A stretch of DNA of 64,000 nucleotides from a virus (IMGVR_UViG_3300047444_000299:64001-128000); one strand, 5' to 3'. Counted from the stretch's first letter, positions 7,957 to 20,264 are shown. Program-made: numbers and translations. Notes: generated by a model from the sequence alone, not told the origin.

Positions 7957-8634
7957 ATGAGCGCAATCAAACAACTGCAATCCCAAGCAAAACAAAACAC
8001 CTTTACCCCAGTTGTAGACCTGAGCATTCGCCATCTGTTGGCTAAAGCCCTGACCGATTCCGGCAAGTTCGAAGCCGTGAATTCCAAAGCAGATACCCGC
8101 CGTGGTTCCCTGTCGGTCAAGCTGCGCGGTTCCCGTATGGTCCGTAACGCCGAAACCATCGAAGCACTGGCCCGTAAAGCTGGCCTGACCGTTAAAGCGC
8201 GTCTGACCAGTTCCGATTTGGCAGAAGCTGGTTTCAAAATCGAACAACTGCAAATCACCAGCGATGTGAAAGCCCCGGCATCGACAACTGTTCAAACCAA
8301 CCAACTGGTAGCTGGTCTGACCAAATCTGCACCGGTTTACAACGGTTCTATTTCGGTTACTGTCGCCGGGGTATCGTGTGGTTATGTTTCTCAGGAAGCC
8401 GCTACCAAGATCAAGGCACTCATTGCCGAAGACCAGAAGCCGAAGATTCAAACTGTCACTATGGTGGACCTGAATACCAACGCCCCGGTGCATGTCATGA
8501 TGCCGAATGCGGTTGCCGAAGCTATCAAAGGCAAGGTTCCAAGCTTCAATTCCGGTGAATGGTCGGTCAAGTCCAGCTCTAGCATTGTGATCGTTCGCCA
8601 CACCAAAACTGGCGGTCATTGGGTTGTTATCTAA
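7957..8634 (+). CDS. hypothetical protein
   Basis: 225 aa with strong phage codon bias; own promoter and terminator (8658-8681). Confidence 0.75.
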   Translation: MSAIKQLQSQAKQNTFTPVVDLSIRHLLAKALTDSGKFEAVNSKADTRRGSLSVKLRGSRMVRNAETIEALARKAGLTVKARLTSSDLAEAGFKIEQLQITSDVKAPASTTVQTNQLVAGLTKSAPVYNGSISVTVAGVSCGYVSQEAATKIKALIAEDQKPKIQTVTMVDLNTNAPVHVMMPNAVAEAIKGKVPSFNSGEWSVKSSSSIVIVRHTKTGGHWVVI

Positions 8635-8690
8635 TCCCAATCTGTAATTGATTCAATAAGGGGGCGAAAGCCTCCTTTTTTTAAGGATAA

Positions 8691-9167
8691 ATGATGCAAT
8701 ACAAAACTGTTAAGGGCAACCTGTTTGATTATCTCAAACCGGGTGATGCAATGGTGCATGGTTGTAACAATCAAGGTGTAATGGGATCTGGTATCGCACT
8801 TGAGGTTAAAGAACGATTCCCCGGTGCCTATAGCACCTATCGAAACAAATACGACCTACACGGCCTAGAGCTGGGTGAAATCATACCATATTTTGATCGA
8901 TCCGGTAAAATCATCATCAACGCGGTGACCCAGAATTTCTATGGCAAAGACGGTAAACGGTATGTCAAATATGATGCTGTAGCCGATTGCTGTTACCACA
9001 TCCGCGAAGGCTTCAAAGTCATGCTAGAACCACCAAAAACCCTGTACTTCCCATTGATTGGGGCCGGGTTAGGTGGTGGTAACTGGAATGTCATATCCGA
9101 AATCATCAAATCAGAATTTGATGGTATGACCGGTACGGAATTGGTTTTGGTTCTGAAAGATGCTTGA
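8691..9167 (+). CDS. macrodomain (ADP-ribose binding/hydrolase) protein, T4 tk.4-like
   Basis: KGNLF, VHGCN..GVMGSGIA..VK.RFP, IINA.TQ, FPLIGAGLGGGNW. Confidence 0.9.
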   Translation: MMQYKTVKGNLFDYLKPGDAMVHGCNNQGVMGSGIALEVKERFPGAYSTYRNKYDLHGLELGEIIPYFDRSGKIIINAVTQNFYGKDGKRYVKYDAVADCCYHIREGFKVMLEPPKTLYFPLIGAGLGGGNWNVISEIIKSEFDGMTGTELVLVLKDA

Positions 9168-11832: not shown

Positions 11833-12606
11833 ATGCCAAGACCTAAAAATACCGAAAAACCAACCGGATTGTTAGCTGGGTTGCGGATTGTTGACCTAGA
11901 ACCCCCGGTTAAACGTGGTAGAGGACGCCCGAAGGGTGGAACTAACCAAAAACGGGTTAGACGATCCGAAATCCAAATAGCATTGGATGAAATTGGTAAG
12001 AAAGAACCTAATATCACCCAAGCGCTAATTGATACAATCGCTCAGTTCCAGACTGATAATGAACGACTGCGATTCCTAACCAACGAATACGCCCGATCTT
12101 TTGCCGAACGGAGACAATCCACCCGGCTATTAACTAATGCGATCCAACAAATGGCCGAACAGAAAGCACCATCCAAATCAGATAAAATCGGAATCCATAT
12201 TTTCATCCCGGTTGATTTGCATCATGAATTCCAGAACATTCTAGAAGACACCCCGCTTAACCGTAATGAAATCCTGACCAATTTGATTTTGAATTACATC
12301 AAAGCCCACAAAGGATTCTCAAAGACCATCCTACAGGACATTAGCGGCGATTTGGGGCGATTGGAGAAGCAAGAGTACCGGAACACCAAGATTGCAGCGG
12401 AAATGCTTGAGAACGCACCATACGACGCCGTGCGAACCGGTGGTAGTGGGAACGTAGCTAGGAAAGGGATTTTAGAAGAAAGTACAGCAGACGAGGAATA
12501 CGCTAGAAAGGTTGACCAGCCGTATACAGAGGAAGGTGTGACCAAGGCGATGAAGAAATCGAAAGGTCCGACCGTTGATATGTCGGAATTGTTCAAAAAA
12601 GACTAA
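11833..12606 (+). CDS. putative DNA-binding protein (AT-hook plus ribbon-helix-helix-like segment)
   Basis: KRGRGRPKGG AT-hook; IGIHIFIPVDLHHEFQNILEDTPLNRNEILTNLILNYIK. Confidence 0.6.
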   Translation: MPRPKNTEKPTGLLAGLRIVDLEPPVKRGRGRPKGGTNQKRVRRSEIQIALDEIGKKEPNITQALIDTIAQFQTDNERLRFLTNEYARSFAERRQSTRLLTNAIQQMAEQKAPSKSDKIGIHIFIPVDLHHEFQNILEDTPLNRNEILTNLILNYIKAHKGFSKTILQDISGDLGRLEKQEYRNTKIAAEMLENAPYDAVRTGGSGNVARKGILEESTADEEYARKVDQPYTEEGVTKAMKKSKGPTVDMSELFKKD

Positions 12607-12607
12607 T

Positions 12608-12635
12608 AAAAAAGGGAGCCAATGGCTCCCTTTTT
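12608..12635. terminator. bidirectional rho-independent terminator
   Basis: A6-GGGAGCC-AAT-GGCTCCC-T5 between convergent genes. Confidence 0.9.
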
Positions 12636-12643
12636 GTTTTCCA

Positions 12644-12940
12644 TCAATTGATGTTACACACAACCCCGACCAGATCATTCAGAGCCAACGGTTTTGGTGT
12701 AGGAGGTGGATACAATTTATCCAATTCTCTTTTTACCAATGTACCGATTGAAATCTGTAGCATCGAGGCGGTTGCAGCAGCGGACGGTGTAATTGTTTCC
12801 ATGTAATATGTACGCTGGATGGTATAGGGTTCTACATCCATCAGAGTAATATCAATGGCATGGGGATCGACGTTGATATCAACGGTTACAGTCCCCAAAT
12901 CAAAGTTAACACCGGTTACTTTAAATGTATTCATTTCCAA
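12644..12940 (-). CDS. hypothetical protein, last gene of the gp38 operon
   Basis: 98 aa, overlaps the upstream gene by 10 bp. Confidence 0.65.
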   Translation of the reverse strand: MEMNTFKVTGVNFDLGTVTVDINVDPHAIDITLMDVEPYTIQRTYYMETITPSAAATASMLQISIGTLVKRELDKLYPPPTPKPLALNDLVGVVCNIN

Positions 12941-13896
12941 ACAGTTTCCCAGTTTTCATTAACAAGCAGAATATTCTGTAGAATGTTCTTTGTATCAGCG
13001 GAATATTCTTGTAAAGACGCAGATTTAGTTTTACTCGGCCATACCGGTTCAAACTTGATAATGTCTATAATCAATTCTTTGTATTGATATTTATAGAGGT
13101 CGATTCCGATTCCAGCCTTTTGACTGGCATCCTGTTGCGCCCAACCTTCAAAATCTCGGGTATTGAAGAATGATACAAACCCCTTACCCGGTGATCCTAA
13201 GCCCAATTTGATTGGGAAATTCATTTCATCCCGATCCCATAGGCAAGAAAAGTCCAACCACCATGCTAAATTGGGCGCATTCATTGCCACCGGCATTAGA
13301 TCGGTTAGGGGTCTGATTTTCTTCAATTGAACTTCTACCCATAGATCAGATTGCCCGGTAAACTTGACCATCAAATCATGTGGGGTCATATCCCAGATAT
13401 CGGTGTAAATCGCCGGATCATCCATATCATCTAAAATTTCACCGATTAAGATAGAATCCGCGTGCGTCCCAGTAACCACCATCCCACCCCTAGCAGTTAC
13501 TGCTTTCATTGCATCAATCGATAATTCTTCGAATGTTGAAAACTGTTTCAACCATTCTACCACTTTTGGGTCACAGGCTTCATCAACTTGAGCTGAATGA
13601 CTGATTGTAATCTTGTGGCGTGGTTGTGCCAAACTGCATAGGTATGCAGCAAGTAGGGTTGAATCAATACCACCGGAAAACATGATATAGATTTCATCAT
13701 ATTTTGCCAGAATTTCGGTTGCTCTATTGAAACATGCTTGTTTTAAACTAATCGATGATGGCGGCGCAATTGGGGTACTAATACCGGAATATAGCTTACC
13801 CGCTCTTGGGATAGCAAATTCATTCATGGTAACTTGCGTGAGTGCCATTCGAAAATGGTCACCGGAACGCCATCTGCTATGGTATCTGTATGTCAT
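12931..13896 (-). CDS. asparagine-synthetase-like adenine nucleotide alpha-hydrolase (PP-loop), no glutaminase domain
   Basis: IMFSGGIDSTLL PP-loop; VVTGTHADSIL equivalent to AsnB SGEGADELF. Confidence 0.75.
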   Translation of the reverse strand: MTYRYHSRWRSGDHFRMALTQVTMNEFAIPRAGKLYSGISTPIAPPSSISLKQACFNRATEILAKYDEIYIMFSGGIDSTLLAAYLCSLAQPRHKITISHSAQVDEACDPKVVEWLKQFSTFEELSIDAMKAVTARGGMVVTGTHADSILIGEILDDMDDPAIYTDIWDMTPHDLMVKFTGQSDLWVEVQLKKIRPLTDLMPVAMNAPNLAWWLDFSCLWDRDEMNFPIKLGLGSPGKGFVSFFNTRDFEGWAQQDASQKAGIGIDLYKYQYKELIIDIIKFEPVWPSKTKSASLQEYSADTKNILQNILLVNENWETVWK

Positions 13897-13928: not shown

Positions 13929-14789
13929 TCAACCCACCAACCCAGAATAGTTGCCGGTGTTACCGATGTAACTATTTACGTTACCCCAGCCGAGGTATGC
14001 ATATCCGGCAGTTCCACCGGGACCACCGGGCCAAGCACCGGAACATTGGCTACCCTGTCCACCACCGCCACCATCGGAGCCCGCAACACCCCACCAACCA
14101 CCCCAACCACCAGTCCCACCGTAACCATCCCCACCGGAGTTAGTTCCAGATCCACCAGCGGATTGGTAGCCACCGTATCCCATCCCGTTACCGCCACCCC
14201 CACCCCATCCCCATGAACATGATGGGTTATTAGAGGTTCCTGTTTGAACCACTCCACCACCGCCTCCACCACCGCCTCCACCACCGCCATAAACCCATCC
14301 ACCGTTTATATACAATGTGATAGATCCACCGACAATGTTGTTAGTGAATTGAAGTGCATAACCACCGGCAGTACCGGGCGAGCCCCAACCCTGATAACCA
14401 CCGGCACCGCCGATACCACCATAGGCTTGGATAGTTCCGCGAAGTTCGATTGTAAGTTGGGTATAATTAGGCCAGAACCCAACAATACACGCTGGTGTAC
14501 CAGCATTATAAGAATAGAAGTTACCAATCAAGATTAGATAGACTTTAGGTTGTCCTGCATAACCATTGGCGTTGGCTATATTACGAAGGTTACCGTTTTG
14601 TATACCACTGACGGTTAATGTAAATGTGTTTGATTTGCTACGAAGGTTTGCCATCGAAATCTGACCGGACGATATTTGTGCCAGAGTCCGAACCGCACTA
14701 AGGTTTAACGACGTGTTGGCACGGTTATACGCAGCGCCCAATTCGACGTTGACATCAGACATCGCAATTTGACCAGCAGGTGTAGTCAT
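13929..14789 (-). CDS. 38: tail fibre adhesin, T2/S16-type gp38
   Basis: N-terminal attachment motif ISMSDVN.ELG...SL..SAVRTLA...SG.ISM..LR.KS; poly-Gly repeats (GGWVYGGGGGGGGGG, GGYGGTGGWGGWWG); directly follows a fibre with S74 chaperone. Confidence 0.8.
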   Translation of the reverse strand: MTTPAGQIAMSDVNVELGAAYNRANTSLNLSAVRTLAQISSGQISMANLRSKSNTFTLTVSGIQNGNLRNIANANGYAGQPKVYLILIGNFYSYNAGTPACIVGFWPNYTQLTIELRGTIQAYGGIGGAGGYQGWGSPGTAGGYALQFTNNIVGGSITLYINGGWVYGGGGGGGGGGGGVVQTGTSNNPSCSWGWGGGGGNGMGYGGYQSAGGSGTNSGGDGYGGTGGWGGWWGVAGSDGGGGGQGSQCSGAWPGGPGGTAGYAYLGWGNVNSYIGNTGNYSGLVG

Positions 14790-14829: not shown

Positions 14830-14862
14830 AAATAAAAAAGGGGCCGAATGGCCCCTTATAAG

Positions 14863-17800
14863 TTACTTGCTAATTGCTGCGATCAATGCCGCAACTTGTT
14901 GTTTTAGAGTTTGGATTTCTTTATCCTGCTCTTTGATTGCTTCCACCAATACCGGCACCAAGCGCTCATATTTCAGAGTCAGGTAGTTTTCACCGGTCAA
15001 CGATTCACCTTTAACATCAGATGTATCGAATGGGGCGCGTTCTACCGCTTGTGGGGTAGTTGCTTGAACATCTTGAGCCAGTAGCCCAATTTCTTGTTTC
15101 TCTGGATCATATCCGAACGAAGCACCCAAGGCGTTAGCGTTATAGGTGTAACCAGTCCAAGCCCGAACAGTGTCCAAGGCGTTAGCGATTGGTTTCAAGT
15201 TCTCTTTCAGACGTTTATCGGAGTAATACGCGATTACGTTACCAGTTGATGCAATATCGTTCGATACATACAGCCCTTTAGATCCGTATACACGTACCCA
15301 AGTTGTATCCTGCATAAAGATACCGCCACCGAAATCTTGGCTGTACCACCCGGTTGCACCAGACGAACGCCACCAGTTGCTATGGGTAGTTGTTCCGGTA
15401 AAAGTATGTGTTCCACTGAATGCCGCTGTACCAGAAGCAGTTAAAGCACCTGCAACAGTCACGTTAGCATTGAATGTCCAGTTTGCACTGGATTGCATCG
15501 CACCGGTTGACAACGCCATGATAAGTGGTCGGTAACTGTTATATGTACCGTATGGGTCACCTGACGCGGTTTGCATCAGATACAGGTTAGTACCATCGTT
15601 ACGCCAGAAACTACCGTAGTTACCTTGAACTTGTCTGTAGCTGTTTGTAGCCGCCGATTGTAGTTCACCGGCAAAAAGGTTGACCGATCTATCAAGTTTT
15701 GCAATGTTTGGATCAATTGAAGCAGCACCAGTAACCGTAATACCGGTTTCACTGGTGATAATAGCCGCATCCCAAGTACCGGTATCCCATCCCGCAAGGC
15801 TGGCCCCGGTGAACCCTAGATTGACATCTTTAACAGTAACAGTTGGGAATGACCAAACCGATGTTGTAGTACCAATCAGAATGCAGTTGTTTGTACCATC
15901 AAATGCGAATCGTACAGTTTGACCCATCGCAGATGTTGGGCCGCCGTTTGTACTTGCCGACACGTTAATCCATGCTGGTGTACCGTTATAGTTATAACCA
16001 CCTACCAGCAACTCAGTATTGGTTTTATCAACACCATAATCGAAAATACCAATACGCATTTTCATCATTGTGTTGTTATACCCAACCGGTAAAACAATTT
16101 TCAGCGTACCAGTGATTGTGCTACCACCACCACCAACAAACTTAGTCAGAACCTGATCATAAACTTTAGCCGACGTACCAGTACGCGAAATCGGACCAGT
16201 TAACAACCCACCAGTGGTTGGGAGTTTAGTCGGATCGGCAATGGTAATGTTCGCAGTACCATCAAAGTTTACACCGTTGATTGTACGGGCAATGTTAAGC
16301 TTAGATGCAGTTGAAGCTAATCCAAGAACGTTAATGTTATAGGTCGAACCATCAACAATAGTCGAAACTGTAATCCAATCCGACCAAACCCCACCACCGG
16401 CTGGGTTAAATTGTCTAAATTCAATAGCCGGGTTACCGGTGTATTGATAGGCCATCTGGAATCTGGCTGATGTGTTCGAAATCGAACCAGTCCAAATTGT
16501 GTTAATATACCAGTAGGTTGACCCGGCATTTGGTGTGTTAATATGATTGGTTACAATCAGGTTAAGCAATGTAGTGTTAGGGTCATCACCAACCAATGCG
16601 GTTGCGGTGTTCTGAGCCATCTGAGCCGCGATTACACCACCAACTTTAACGGTATCTAATGCCATTGCAGCGGTTGAACCAGATGCCCCTAGGAACTTGG
16701 CATCGGCTTCTGCTTTGCTGTAAACATTCAATGTACCACGGGCCGCGTTAGGGTCCGGTAGATCCGATAGGTTCGAAGTCTTTTTCAGGTACGGTGAACC
16801 GTTAACAATGCTTTCCCAAACATATTTCGATCCGTTCCAACCACGATAGATGTAAGTAACCATCAAACCGTTATCAGCAGCGGTATAGGTCAGGTTGGCA
16901 ACCCCACCATCCAGAAGCTGGGTAGAAGTGTTTTGTAGACCGACGTTAACCGGGAATGCGGTCGAGTTGATTACAGCAGTAACGGTGTCACCGACTCTTA
17001 CTTGATCAATTTGCGGCAACAGGATTGTTTGACCAGATGCACCGGTAAGGGTAACAAATGAATTCGCAATCATCGATCCAGTGGACATCGCCGGAACAGC
17101 AGTTGTATCGTTAGTTGTGAATATCGACCATTCACCCTGTTTGAACAGGAACAGGGTTTTGCTACGTTGTTTGATTCTGTATGTTGTGGTGTTTTGTGTC
17201 ACACCGTTCATACGGAAGAAACCACCACCGGACGCGGTAACCACTAAAGATCCTGTTGCTACAGGATCTTGGAACTTAGCAATTACTTCAACCCAATCCC
17301 CATCAGATACCGATGTCGAGATTGGTAGGTTCAATGTTTTAGCAGTACCGTCTAATGTAACAAATACACTCTGGTTAACCAGTGGGGTCAGGGTTTCCAT
17401 TCTACGACCGGAACTGGCTACGCTAACAGCTTTCCATTCACCCGATGACTGATCGAACAGCATCGAAACAATACTACCATTACGGTTAATTACATACGAC
17501 GCAGAACCGTTGATGTTCTTACCGTTACCGTTGATTGTAATGTTAAAGTTTGCCGCGTTGGATACACCATCCGAAACCACAACCCATTGGCCTTGAACCG
17601 GGTTGATTGGTAGAATAACGGTGATCGGAGCTGTAGTTAATTGAACATAGTTGAACGTATTAGGTGCAACGGTTTGGTTTGTACCAATCAGTTGGTATTG
17701 CGGTCTTGCAATACGAACAACCCGCCATGTACCACCCAAGAACACAACCTGAGTTGTATCAGATGAATTGATGGCATAGGTTGACACACCAGAGTTGTTG

Positions 17801-18258
17801 AATGTGTTTGTACCGGCGCTCAGAATAATCGGGTTGGTTGACGCAGTACCTTCATCGATGATAAAGACCACATCACCTTCCTCTGCAATCACCGGTAGGG
17901 TAATCGTTACAGAACTGGAAGCTGTGTTTAACAGCAGGCAATCACCGGGTTCGGCTGTATAAGCACCCGCGATTCTCTGCCATAGGTTGAAGGCGTGGAT
18001 TTCTGTCCATGCATTTAGATCAAATGCCCCGACTGCAATAGCCGATTTGGCTTTGTACAGGCGATCCGAACGCTCCACGATGAATCCTTGTGGGTATGTA
18101 CGGGTTGGATCAAATGTCTGTACGGTGTTCTTAGCCACCAGATACTGGGCGTTGACCGCATCTGTTGGGTTGATCGGGTCACCAACGTTGATGACCTGCA
18201 CGCCGTTGGAATCGACGCCTAATCTGGCTTTGAAAGGTTTTGCTTGTGGTCCGCTCAT
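14863..18258 (-). CDS. long tail fibre protein (gp34-like N-terminus, gp37-like C-terminus with peptidase S74 chaperone)
   Basis: N-terminus PFKARLGVDSNGVQVINVG..DAVN.QYL..NTVQ.FDPTR.Y matches T4 gp34; C-terminus YYSDKRLKENL...LKYERLVPVLVEAIKE is an intramolecular chaperone. Confidence 0.9.
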   Translation of the reverse strand: MSGPQAKPFKARLGVDSNGVQVINVGDPINPTDAVNAQYLVAKNTVQTFDPTRTYPQGFIVERSDRLYKAKSAIAVGAFDLNAWTEIHAFNLWQRIAGAYTAEPGDCLLLNTASSSVTITLPVIAEEGDVVFIIDEGTASTNPIILSAGTNTFNNSGVSTYAINSSDTTQVVFLGGTWRVVRIARPQYQLIGTNQTVAPNTFNYVQLTTAPITVILPINPVQGQWVVVSDGVSNAANFNITINGNGKNINGSASYVINRNGSIVSMLFDQSSGEWKAVSVASSGRRMETLTPLVNQSVFVTLDGTAKTLNLPISTSVSDGDWVEVIAKFQDPVATGSLVVTASGGGFFRMNGVTQNTTTYRIKQRSKTLFLFKQGEWSIFTTNDTTAVPAMSTGSMIANSFVTLTGASGQTILLPQIDQVRVGDTVTAVINSTAFPVNVGLQNTSTQLLDGGVANLTYTAADNGLMVTYIYRGWNGSKYVWESIVNGSPYLKKTSNLSDLPDPNAARGTLNVYSKAEADAKFLGASGSTAAMALDTVKVGGVIAAQMAQNTATALVGDDPNTTLLNLIVTNHINTPNAGSTYWYINTIWTGSISNTSARFQMAYQYTGNPAIEFRQFNPAGGGVWSDWITVSTIVDGSTYNINVLGLASTASKLNIARTINGVNFDGTANITIADPTKLPTTGGLLTGPISRTGTSAKVYDQVLTKFVGGGGSTITGTLKIVLPVGYNNTMMKMRIGIFDYGVDKTNTELLVGGYNYNGTPAWINVSASTNGGPTSAMGQTVRFAFDGTNNCILIGTTTSVWSFPTVTVKDVNLGFTGASLAGWDTGTWDAAIITSETGITVTGAASIDPNIAKLDRSVNLFAGELQSAATNSYRQVQGNYGSFWRNDGTNLYLMQTASGDPYGTYNSYRPLIMALSTGAMQSSANWTFNANVTVAGALTASGTAAFSGTHTFTGTTTHSNWWRSSGATGWYSQDFGGGIFMQDTTWVRVYGSKGLYVSNDIASTGNVIAYYSDKRLKENLKPIANALDTVRAWTGYTYNANALGASFGYDPEKQEIGLLAQDVQATTPQAVERAPFDTSDVKGESLTGENYLTLKYERLVPVLVEAIKEQDKEIQTLKQQVAALIAAISK

Positions 18259-18322: not shown

Positions 18323-18330
18323 TATTTATA
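18323..18330 (-). promoter_or_regulatory. T4-type late promoter
   Basis: TATAAATA upstream of the long tail fibre gene. Confidence 0.75.
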
Positions 18331-18778: not shown

Positions 18779-19677
18779 GTTTAGCGGAATTTCTGGGTGA
18801 AGAAGAACGAAAATCTGGTTTGATGATTGTCGATTTCTCCCAAATCATAATCAGTACAATCAACGCGACATTCCGACCAACCGAAGAACTATCAGTTGAT
18901 TTGATACGTCACGTTGCTTTGAACTCGATTCGTTTCAACGTTCTAACCAATAAAGCCATCTACCCAGATATCGTTCTGGCGTGTGACCGTGGGCCATACT
19001 GGCGTAAAGAGATTGCCGAGTATTACAAGGCCCACCGAAAAGACCAACGAGACAATTCCGGTTGGGATTGGAAAGTGATATTTGAAGCGATGAATCAGGT
19101 TCGTGAAGAACTGCATTTGATCTTTCCTTACAGAACCATCCAGATTGCCGGGATTGAAGCGGATGATATCGCCGGGGTTCTGACCCACCAGCTTTGGCAC
19201 AAATATGATCGAATCCTTTTGGTTTCGTCTGATAGTGACTGGGCGCAGTTGTCCAAGTTCAAGAACGTGAAACAATGGTCACCTATCCAGAAGAAATGGG
19301 TTGAACCGAAGCACGGTTCTGCACACTTGCATTTGATGGAAAAGATCATCAAGGGCGACCCAAAGGATTGTATCGCTAGCATCAAATCGGTTGCAGACCA
19401 TTTGATGAATTTCCGGGATACACGCCAAAAGTCGATCTACCAAAAAGAGCTTGACATATGGATGCACGAACCAGTGGAAAACTGGGGCGATGAATTCACC
19501 ATCAAGCGGTTCCACGAAAACCAGAAAATGCTGGATCTGGGGATGATTCCTCAAGAGATTCAGGACAAAATCATGGCCGCATTTGACGAACCCCGCCCTA
19601 ACGGTGCCGGGATCTTTAACTATTTCATCAAACATCGTTTGAAGGAAATGCTAGGCCGCATCGGAGAGTTTGTATGA
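18775..19677 (+). CDS. rnh: RNase H / 5'-3' exonuclease (T4 type)
   Basis: VDFSQI, DIVLACD, YWRK....YYKA.RK, EADDIA, SSDSD..QL, IIKGD.KD.I; divergent from gp34 as in T4. Confidence 0.93.
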   Translation: MSLAEFLGEEERKSGLMIVDFSQIIISTINATFRPTEELSVDLIRHVALNSIRFNVLTNKAIYPDIVLACDRGPYWRKEIAEYYKAHRKDQRDNSGWDWKVIFEAMNQVREELHLIFPYRTIQIAGIEADDIAGVLTHQLWHKYDRILLVSSDSDWAQLSKFKNVKQWSPIQKKWVEPKHGSAHLHLMEKIIKGDPKDCIASIKSVADHLMNFRDTRQKSIYQKELDIWMHEPVENWGDEFTIKRFHENQKMLDLGMIPQEIQDKIMAAFDEPRPNGAGIFNYFIKHRLKEMLGRIGEFV

Positions 19678-20264
19678 GCTATACACAGTTGGAAGCCGCA
19701 TTTGTTAAACAGCTTGATTGGGCTAATCGCGAACTTCGCACCACCGAACAATGGTGGGATGATGTATCCAACGATCCAGAAAAATTGATTCTCTGGCTCA
19801 AGGATCAATTCTACGGTGAACAAACGGCTGCGGCTCGAATTCGCGGCCTTCTGGATCAATACCCGGACATTACCAAGACCGAAAGAGAATTGGTGACCAT
19901 GATTGCCGACGATGAAGACAAGCACGCCGAATGGGTGAAAGGTCTTCTGATCGCCCGTGGTATTCCGGTTACCTATTTCCGTGAAAAGAGCGTTCGGTAT
20001 TGGGATAAAACCCTACCGAAAGGTGATGCAACCTTCTCCCAGATGTGCGCAATCGGTCACCATGCCGAAGTGATGCGACTGGAAAGGATCAAATTGCTGG
20101 CTCAGGATGGGCGGTTTGATGATATTGCCAGAGTATTTGGTAAGATCCTCCCGGACGAAGAATTCCATACCAAAGCATTCAAGGTGATGTCAACCCCGGA
20201 AGACATCGCAGCCGCGTTGCCTGCCCATCAAGAAGGCATGAACGCCTTGGGTCTGGTAGCGTAA
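19674..20264 (+). CDS. ferritin-like di-iron protein
   Basis: Paired E...ExxH motifs: YGEQTA / DEDKH and HAEVM / DEEFH. Confidence 0.75.
   Translation: MSYTQLEAAFVKQLDWANRELRTTEQWWDDVSNDPEKLILWLKDQFYGEQTAAARIRGLLDQYPDITKTERELVTMIADDEDKHAEWVKGLLIARGIPVTYFREKSVRYWDKTLPKGDATFSQMCAIGHHAEVMRLERIKLLAQDGRFDDIARVFGKILPDEEFHTKAFKVMSTPEDIAAALPAHQEGMNALGLVA

Follow-up and report, generated by a model that had tools for sequence, protein, structure and literature searches.

What does an enzyme of the asparagine synthetase type do among the tail fibre genes of a bacteriophage? The question is raised by a gene in IMGVR_UViG_3300047444_000299, a complete virus record of 183,070 bp with terminal repeats. 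The window analysed here comprises 64,000 nucleotides (nt) of this record (64001-128000), and all coordinates are counted within it. The gene, which is single-copy in the genome, encodes a stand-alone PP-loop enzyme related to the synthetase domain of AsnB, and it stands third in a cassette formed by a tail fibre with a Peptidase_S74 (S74) domain, a gp38-type adhesin, the enzyme and a protein of 96 amino acids (aa), followed by a terminator. Judged by its tail sheath, the phage is a T4-type Pseudomonas phage, since this protein is 66-67% identical to the sheaths of the Pseudomonas phages Astolliot (genus Otagovirus, from P. syringae) and Milchi (from P. poae). The original prediction, made from the sequence alone, had the enzyme forming an amide or isopeptide bond on the adhesin or the fibre tip after S74 autocleavage. 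Our analysis associates the enzyme with the polyglycine domain of the adhesin instead, and our answer, held tentatively, is that the enzyme and its 96-aa partner make an amide on or for this adhesin, which would tune or stabilise the receptor-binding tip.

The tertiary structure of the enzyme was modelled with AlphaFold2 on 16 homologues, and the model shows a mean predicted local distance difference test score (pLDDT) of 91 and a predicted template modelling score of 0.89. When it was compared with 48,161 representative PDB chains, the top five were all AsnB-type synthetase domains with 212-244 residues aligned: TsnB9 (PDB: 7ylz, Z 11.9), human ASNS (9b6c, Z 11.6), beta-lactam synthetase (1jgt, Z 11.4), carbapenam synthetase (1q15, Z 11.2) and E. 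coli AsnB (1ct9, Z 10.5). Chains of other PP-loop families (LarE, FAD synthase, GMP synthetase, NAD synthetase, TilS and QueC, from various PDB entries) reached Z 4.3-6.7. Foldseek, which had been proposed as a check, gave the same ranking, with the AsnB-type synthetase domains first. Sequence identity to these AsnB-type structures ranges between 11 and 16%. Model residues 1-321, nearly the full length, align with the synthetase domain, and the alignment begins at around residue 138-179 of the AsnB-type chains; therefore the N-terminal nucleophile (Ntn) glutaminase domain is absent from the enzyme, which starts with MTYRYH and has no Cys2. Both the missing glutaminase and the fold that adenylates carboxylates and forms amides had been claimed for this gene, and both are supported by the structural comparison.

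Catalogued family models cover the enzyme in small part. Pfam PF00733 (Asn_synthase) gives 13.9 bits against a cut-off of 21, over residues 71-100 only, and TIGR01536 (asn_synth_AEB) gives 11 bits against a cut-off of 267; just six of 65 family members reach PF00733 at E 0.01. Fragments of the LarE, TilS, QatC and AsnB models match about 30-60 residues around the PP-loop, far under the curated cut-offs. Apart from such PP-loop fragments, no model for the enzyme was found in Pfam, PHROGs or NCBIfam, PHROGs having none for the distant members either, and a PDB sequence search gave PP-loop-sized matches only. MnmA models are absent from the Pfam and NCBIfam matches even at E 10, a result that does not in itself exclude the family, and no MnmA chain stands among the 50 structural matches listed, in which the AsnB-type fold is clearly preferred.

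The open reading frame (ORF) of the enzyme runs on the minus strand from an ATG at 13896 to a TGA at 12933-12931. One database entry of the protein begins at M17; nevertheless, the long start is the correct one, because the first 16 residues (M-x-Y-R-Y...W) are kept in homologues down to 30% identity. The SGGIDS PP-loop and the TGTHADSIL motif, named in the original prediction, were located at residues 74-79 and 142-150, respectively. Alignment of 65 diverse family members shows that S74, G75, G76, D78, D147 and K269 are invariant, and the catalytic PP-loop, D147 and K269 are retained in all eight members of the clade to which the window's protein belongs, paralogues included. The family consensus reads WSGGIDST ... 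VTGExxDQLFG. The Glu of its second motif is present in 62 of 103 members of the wider family; in the window's clade this position is occupied by T, M, V or H and the next one, in seven of the eight members, by His (His145). D215, D223, K260, G262 and Y272 are specific to the clade.

According to order and spacing, the second motif would correspond to S346-G-E348-G-S-D351 of AsnB, and K269, within a Y-K motif, to the lysine of AsnB R-x-K449. Past the PP-loop, these equivalences are drawn from motif order and from a weak match between the profile and residues 342-387 of 1ct9, because in a direct hhalign comparison with E. coli AsnB the family profile could be aligned over the PP-loop alone (23 columns). 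So placed, the conserved residues match by position those with which asparagine synthetase B binds ATP and pyrophosphate (PPi), Mg2+ and the acyl-adenylate. Since every copy retains the nucleotide and Mg residues and the Glu348-equivalent is changed, the pattern argues for a working adenylating enzyme with altered acceptor chemistry in the window's clade.

The cassette that holds the enzyme comprises the following features:

18323-18330, minus strand: late promoter motif of the T4 type, TATAAATA, situated about 65 nt 5' of the fibre start.

14863-18258, minus strand: single-chain long tail fibre of 1131 aa, with a gp34-like N-terminus, Gp34_trimer at residues 828-913 and the Peptidase_S74 intramolecular chaperone at residues 1013-1072.

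14838-14857, minus strand: terminator-like hairpin and T-run, directly after the fibre stop codon.

13929-14789, minus strand: gp38-type polyglycine adhesin of 286 aa, with an N-terminal attachment motif, glycine-rich repeats and a GNxxNYSGxVG tail.

12931-13896, minus strand: stand-alone PP-loop enzyme of the AsnB synthetase-domain type, 321 aa.

12644-12934, minus strand: conserved 96-aa protein, whose ATG overlaps the TGA of the enzyme (ATGA).

12609-12635: strong bidirectional intrinsic terminator with a 12-bp stem, which closes both the cassette and a convergent plus-strand gene.

The adhesin gene ends 32 nt upstream of the enzyme gene on the same strand, so that the enzyme does lie directly downstream of gp38, as first described. 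The overlap of the enzyme stop with the start of the 96-aa gene indicates that the latter is translationally coupled to the enzyme. The G+C content of the enzyme gene is 0.42 in relation to 0.46 for the window, and that of the cassette is unremarkable. The convergent ORF (257 aa, 11833-12606) is unrelated to a binding protein found behind the cassette in one of the relatives (L003, below). The TATAAATA motif occurs nine times in the window against 2.3 expected, mostly 5' of minus-strand ORFs in the structural-gene region, and the copy at 18330-18323 precedes the fibre gene. The description of the locus as a late operon is thus mostly right: the late promoter 5' of the fibre agrees with it, whereas the terminator-like hairpin between fibre and adhesin does not. 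Because this hairpin (14857-14838) separates the fibre from the adhesin, adhesin, enzyme and 96-aa gene may form a sub-unit of transcription of their own. A second exact TATAAATA is located on the minus strand within the enzyme ORF (13088-13095), about 150 nt 5' of the 96-aa ORF; it could give the 96-aa gene its own late transcript, or be there by chance.

The glycine-rich 286-aa protein is probably a gp38-type adhesin. In the ESM Atlas, 28 of its 30 feature matches are PF05268 clusters, with scores of 0.96-0.97 and a structural template modelling score of 0.78. Its alignment to the gp38 of PDB 9v85 is weak (E 1.7-2.3) with high composition bias, and the Pfam GP38 model (PF05268) does not reach the E 0.01 threshold for it. 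The scan of viral contigs for adhesins used the N-terminal domain, the full alignment being swamped by the glycine-run pattern. In this domain K52 is invariant; it was considered as an enzyme-linked lysine and rejected, K52 being found also in adhesins without the enzyme. Glycine-rich proteins at seven loci (L102 and L107-L112) were likewise discarded as examples of an adhesin without enzyme, as they belong to a different family ending in ...GGSGIVxIRYP.

The confident model of the 96-aa protein (pLDDT 86) consists of three strands and a long helix, with a tail rich in proline (PPPxPKP). No family and no tblastn match in phages was found for it; fold searches gave E values of at least 0.0075 (Foldseek, viral) and Z scores of at most 4.9 (VIA). 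A fold like the RiPP recognition element (RRE) was not detected, all fold matches being under Z 5.

To see how far the association of enzyme and adhesin extends, gene contexts are given for close relatives with a readable neighbourhood; the relatives with 30-40% identity (P0010-P0036, Logan/ENA assemblies) are set aside. The close relatives occupy five loci (L002-L006) on four distinct uncultured contigs, the gene maps of L005 and L006 being identical. All five show a fibre, an adhesin of 286-290 aa, the enzyme and a protein of about 95-110 aa, in the same order, and L003 has in addition a second enzyme paralogue (31% identity). Among 50,697 phage records searched by tblastn with the enzyme, the sole match was Cygsa01 (PP179332.1, locus L001), a 166-kb myovirus of P. 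syringae. Its record has no family assignment, and its baseplate annotations cite the Ackermannviridae phages Limestone and P46FS4 as nearest matches. Downstream of the baseplate genes, Cygsa01 shows an S74 fibre of 531 aa, an adhesin of 278 aa, enzyme paralogue 2, a 90-aa protein and enzyme paralogue 1. Residues 698-1125 of the window's fibre are 28% identical to the Cygsa01 fibre; identity is 44% for the adhesin, 27% for enzyme paralogue 2 and 42% for paralogue 1, and the 90-aa protein is homologous to the 96-aa protein of the window (E 2e-7). By this comparison, the whole cassette has moved between two unrelated phage types with a common host group, because Cygsa01, an unrelated phage, holds the set of fibre, adhesin, enzyme and small protein. 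The association with gp38 is therefore real beyond one genome, as the adhesin, enzyme and small protein occur together in every readable close relative and in Cygsa01.

In GenBank, the two Cygsa01 enzymes (Cygsa01_00010 and _00008; L001:6799-7707 and 7992-8948) are labelled 'tRNA-specific 2-thiouridylase MnmA'. This label is probably wrong and due to the PP-loop, because the fold and family results point to the AsnB-type synthetase domain. The paper that reports Cygsa01 holds no discussion of these genes. An unannotated open frame of 1606 aa was also observed in this locus (L001:9051-13871, locus minus strand), between tRNA-Ala and the next coding sequence; this frame shares sequence with the annotated tRNA and could be either genuine or an artefact of the 57% G+C.

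The nearest cultured relatives, Astolliot and Milchi, show synteny with the window at this locus, with rIIB, rIIA and RNase H followed by the fibre, and the S74 end of their fibres shows 56% identity over the last approximately 200 aa. The proteins behind the fibre (183-197 aa) share the N-terminal motif of the adhesin (MTLPxSGxIxxGQV...GQISxSDLxGKS) and not its polyglycine domain, none being glycine-rich, and the enzyme was not found in either phage. Two or three such proteins lie in tandem (Astolliot, L113:8069-9746; Milchi, L114:8041-9182). Such an arrangement suggests that tip proteins can be swapped on a shared attachment motif. Because both phages keep the S74 fibre and lack polyglycine as well as the enzyme, the enzyme goes with the polyglycine domain, and not with S74 cleavage or the attachment motif. 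The proposed tie to S74 autocleavage is thus not supported, since the S74 end and the adhesin motif are present here without the enzyme.

Exhaustive HMMER searches grouped the family in 162 clusters at 50% identity with E <=0.001, of which 14 are under 1e-30. The ESM Atlas places the enzyme among mostly viral clusters without a Pfam family, and metagenome and genome scans gave distant relatives only, with 22-26% identity. In a tree of 111 members, the window's protein falls in a fully supported clade on a long branch, which it shares with its four close relatives and with the two paralogues each of L003 and Cygsa01. Distant enzymes (23-25% identity) are found zero to three genes downstream of gp38-type adhesins, on the same strand, in L070, L009, L051 and L077; in L058, the protein upstream of the enzyme is a glycine-rich protein of 384 aa whose C-terminus is not gp38-like. 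These five loci are scattered over the family tree in four or more separate positions. As a rough estimate, five adhesin-adjacent cases were observed against about one expected among approximately 60 lineages, given that a random T4-like gene lies within 3 kb downstream of an adhesin about 1-2% of the time. Taken together, the constant order in L002-L006, the Cygsa01 set, the contrast with Astolliot and Milchi and the distant adhesin-adjacent members make the link between enzyme and adhesin, on the genomic evidence, more than adjacency. The lineages with the full cassette that can be counted as independent are only two or three.

Two further arrangements were observed in the wider family. About 13 contigs of aquatic T4-like phages (class B loci) contain a conserved block of an FA_desaturase-like protein (about 250 aa), an ORF of about 65 aa, the AsnB-like enzyme and a GNAT acetyltransferase (for example, L030:6752-7504 and 8605-9078); it lies a few genes behind the gp38-type adhesin in L077 and behind the 384-aa glycine-rich protein in L058. 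Arrays of two to four paralogues per locus, often back to back (L045, L052), are also found: four copies in L045 and three in each of L052, L046, L015, L022, L035 and L083. In the window itself, a 196-aa ferritin-like protein is encoded on the plus strand (19674-20264) between the RNase H and rIIA genes, with matches to Rubrerythrin (E 5e-6) and, under the cut-off, to a MiaE-like family (E 4e-5).

In the mechanism that we tentatively propose, the enzyme, which has no built-in glutaminase, would adenylate a carboxylate, converting ATP to AMP and PPi, and would transfer the acyl moiety to an amine or to ammonia. During the late stage of infection, it would act with the 96-aa protein to make an amide linkage on or for the polyglycine adhesin, by amidation of a side-chain or C-terminal carboxylate, by closure of an internal lactam or isopeptide, or by joining of a small acid to one of the adhesin's amines. 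The receptor-binding tip would thereby be tuned or stabilised, and the role would go with the polyglycine domain and not with S74 cleavage. The gene set shared with an unrelated Pseudomonas phage hints at a chemical finishing of the host-recognition protein. More doubtful is the broader proposal that gp38-type adhesins are tailored by a phage-encoded AsnB-type enzyme recruited by the 96-aa partner, and that the trio moves between phage families as a host-range cassette.

Several observations weigh against amide formation on the adhesin. Most gp38-type adhesins occur without such an enzyme, tblastn having recovered Cygsa01 alone among the 50,697 phage records. The clade does not conserve the residue that aligns with AsnB Glu348, so that the chemistry may differ. 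Fibre cassettes border hyperplastic regions, which are gathering places of unrelated genes. Directly behind the cassette, on the same strand, L003 (11309-12064) and L005 (11260-12015) have an ORF of 251 aa, which in L003 encodes an SBP_bac_3 amino-acid-binding protein with a signal peptide; the L005 counterpart is known by size and position. Furthermore, the wider family sits mostly in contexts that look non-structural and directed at small molecules. A Cupin_2 protein of about 200-280 aa lies within 1.5 kb of the enzyme in 30 of 104 loci (among others L070:10801-11445, L088:6740-7444, L091:10930-11625, L094:8806-9429 and L089:10867-11718), which span phages and genomes of Bacteroidota, Planctomycetota and Pseudomonadota (Lewinella, Bacteroidia, Bernardetia and Xanthomonadaceae among them); this partner adjoins a GDP-mannose-dehydratase-like gene once and lies near an ABC ATPase once. 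Other distant contexts contain a desaturase-like protein with GNAT, ThyX, a radical-SAM enzyme with an exported DctP binding protein, or DNA polymerase, and Pfam does not identify the neighbours of about 206-245 aa at distant loci as class-I glutaminases. These contexts, together with the exported protein in L003, the same-sized ORF in L005 and the arrays of two to four paralogues, favour a small-molecule amide synthetase acting on a free organic or amino acid, a nucleotide-sugar or an envelope precursor, with an auxiliary metabolic or receptor-masking function, which merely travels with the receptor-binding genes. This explanation is possible, though we consider it doubtful: the window's clade is set apart by a long branch, its second motif is altered, and it has lost the cupin partner, which was not found in the window; the enzyme gene appears to belong to a late fibre cassette closed by terminators; and the order of the cassette is kept across two unrelated phage types.

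The remaining explanations are less probable. The enzyme and the 96-aa protein could be chaperones, ATP-driven or not, for folding or mounting of the adhesin with no covalent change, as their genes are placed like those for tail-fibre assembly, no enzyme-like fold is seen in the small protein and both are co-inherited with the adhesin; the conservation of the PP-loop, D147 and K269 in all eight clade members, duplicates included, makes this unlikely, and to our knowledge no chaperone of the AsnB-type fold has been described. A ligation in which the new C-terminal carboxylate of the fibre, exposed by S74 autocleavage, is adenylated and joined to the adhesin would suit the fold, and both an S74 domain and an adhesin N-terminal domain with an invariant K52 are present; however, Astolliot and Milchi have the S74 end, the adhesin motif and the lysine but no enzyme, HTVC008M has the motif without an enzyme within its 6-kb flanks, and we regard this ligation as very unlikely. 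We give hardly any weight to a nucleic-acid- or tRNA-modifying enzyme similar to MnmA, TilS or QueC. It would explain the partial PP-loop matches to TilS, LarE and QatC and the MnmA label in Cygsa01, but these matches remain short and far under the cut-offs, TilS, QueC and LarE stay at Z 4.3-6.7 against 10.5-11.9 for the AsnB-type domains, and an added RNA-binding domain is not evident, nearly all of the 321 aa aligning to the synthetase domain. It is equally improbable that the enzyme is a plain asparagine synthetase which uses ammonia and free aspartate: although AsnB and human ASNS are among the closest fold matches, both asparagine synthetase models stay under threshold, the Glu348-equivalent is lost in the clade, identity to the AsnB-type structures is 11-16% and the gene is placed in a fibre cassette. 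Amide formation on or for the polyglycine adhesin is the reading that we retain, at the tentative level given above.

The fold and the class of chemistry are already known, while the enzyme family is uncatalogued. No paper tying an asparagine-synthetase-like enzyme to a phage tail-fibre adhesin was found in the literature, and, as far as these searches show, membership of such an enzyme in a mobile host-recognition cassette is undescribed. Receptor-binding proteins set the host range of phages and are the parts most often engineered. If the adhesin needs a modification made by the enzyme, a transplant of the adhesin by itself would not succeed, and the real unit in the exchange of host range would be the cassette. 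Even with a small-molecule substrate, this would be a large and mostly viral family (162 clusters) that has no model in Pfam, PHROGs or NCBIfam and is probably misannotated as MnmA in GenBank. The cultured pair of Cygsa01 and P. syringae JD03 makes the question testable.

Compared with the gp38 of T2/S16-type phages (PF05268), the window shows the same placement of a glycine-rich adhesin gene directly behind the fibre gene, here a fibre that ends in S74. The difference lies in the enzyme, which tblastn recovered from Cygsa01 only in a set of records that includes the T-even coliphages; we know of no AsnB-like enzyme or 96-aa protein reported in the described gp38 systems. Decoration of the adhesin would have a possible analogy in the QueC-like Cap9-CdnD (PDB 9nto) and QatC, where a small acid is placed onto a protein, judged from the PDB title ('NDG modification' on CdnD). 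However, the window's enzyme reaches just Z 4.9 with this other PP-loop family, whose members belong to bacterial defence and not to phage virion genes.

The likeness to E. coli AsnB (1ct9) and human ASNS (9b6c) is closer and comprises the SGGxDS PP-loop, a conserved C-terminal lysine and a fold with Z 10.5-11.6 over 212-213 aligned residues, and the TG-x-x-x-D second motif would, by motif order, line up with S346-G-E-G-S-D351 of AsnB. The window's enzyme differs in that it has no Ntn glutaminase, shares 11-16% identity, stays under the PF00733 cut-off, has the Glu348-equivalent replaced and followed by the clade's His145, and is encoded in a tail-fibre cassette. Beta-lactam synthetase (1jgt), carbapenam synthetase (1q15) and the hydroxyamidotransferase TsnB9 (7ylz) resemble it at Z 11.2-11.9. 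In the beta-lactam and carbapenam synthetases, the AsnB scaffold adenylates a carboxylate and forms an amide without glutamine hydrolysis. These natural-product enzymes keep a dead or repurposed N-terminal domain, have about 500 aa and act on small molecules in biosynthetic clusters, and no such cluster is present here. The lasso-peptide systems include a short precursor peptide and a leader peptidase (B protein), no counterpart of which is evident among the fibre, adhesin, enzyme and 96-aa protein of the window's cassette; their cyclases (McjC type) are AsnB-like enzymes that adenylate a side-chain carboxylate of a peptide and close an isopeptide bond, and they provide the precedent for an AsnB-like enzyme with a peptide or protein substrate.

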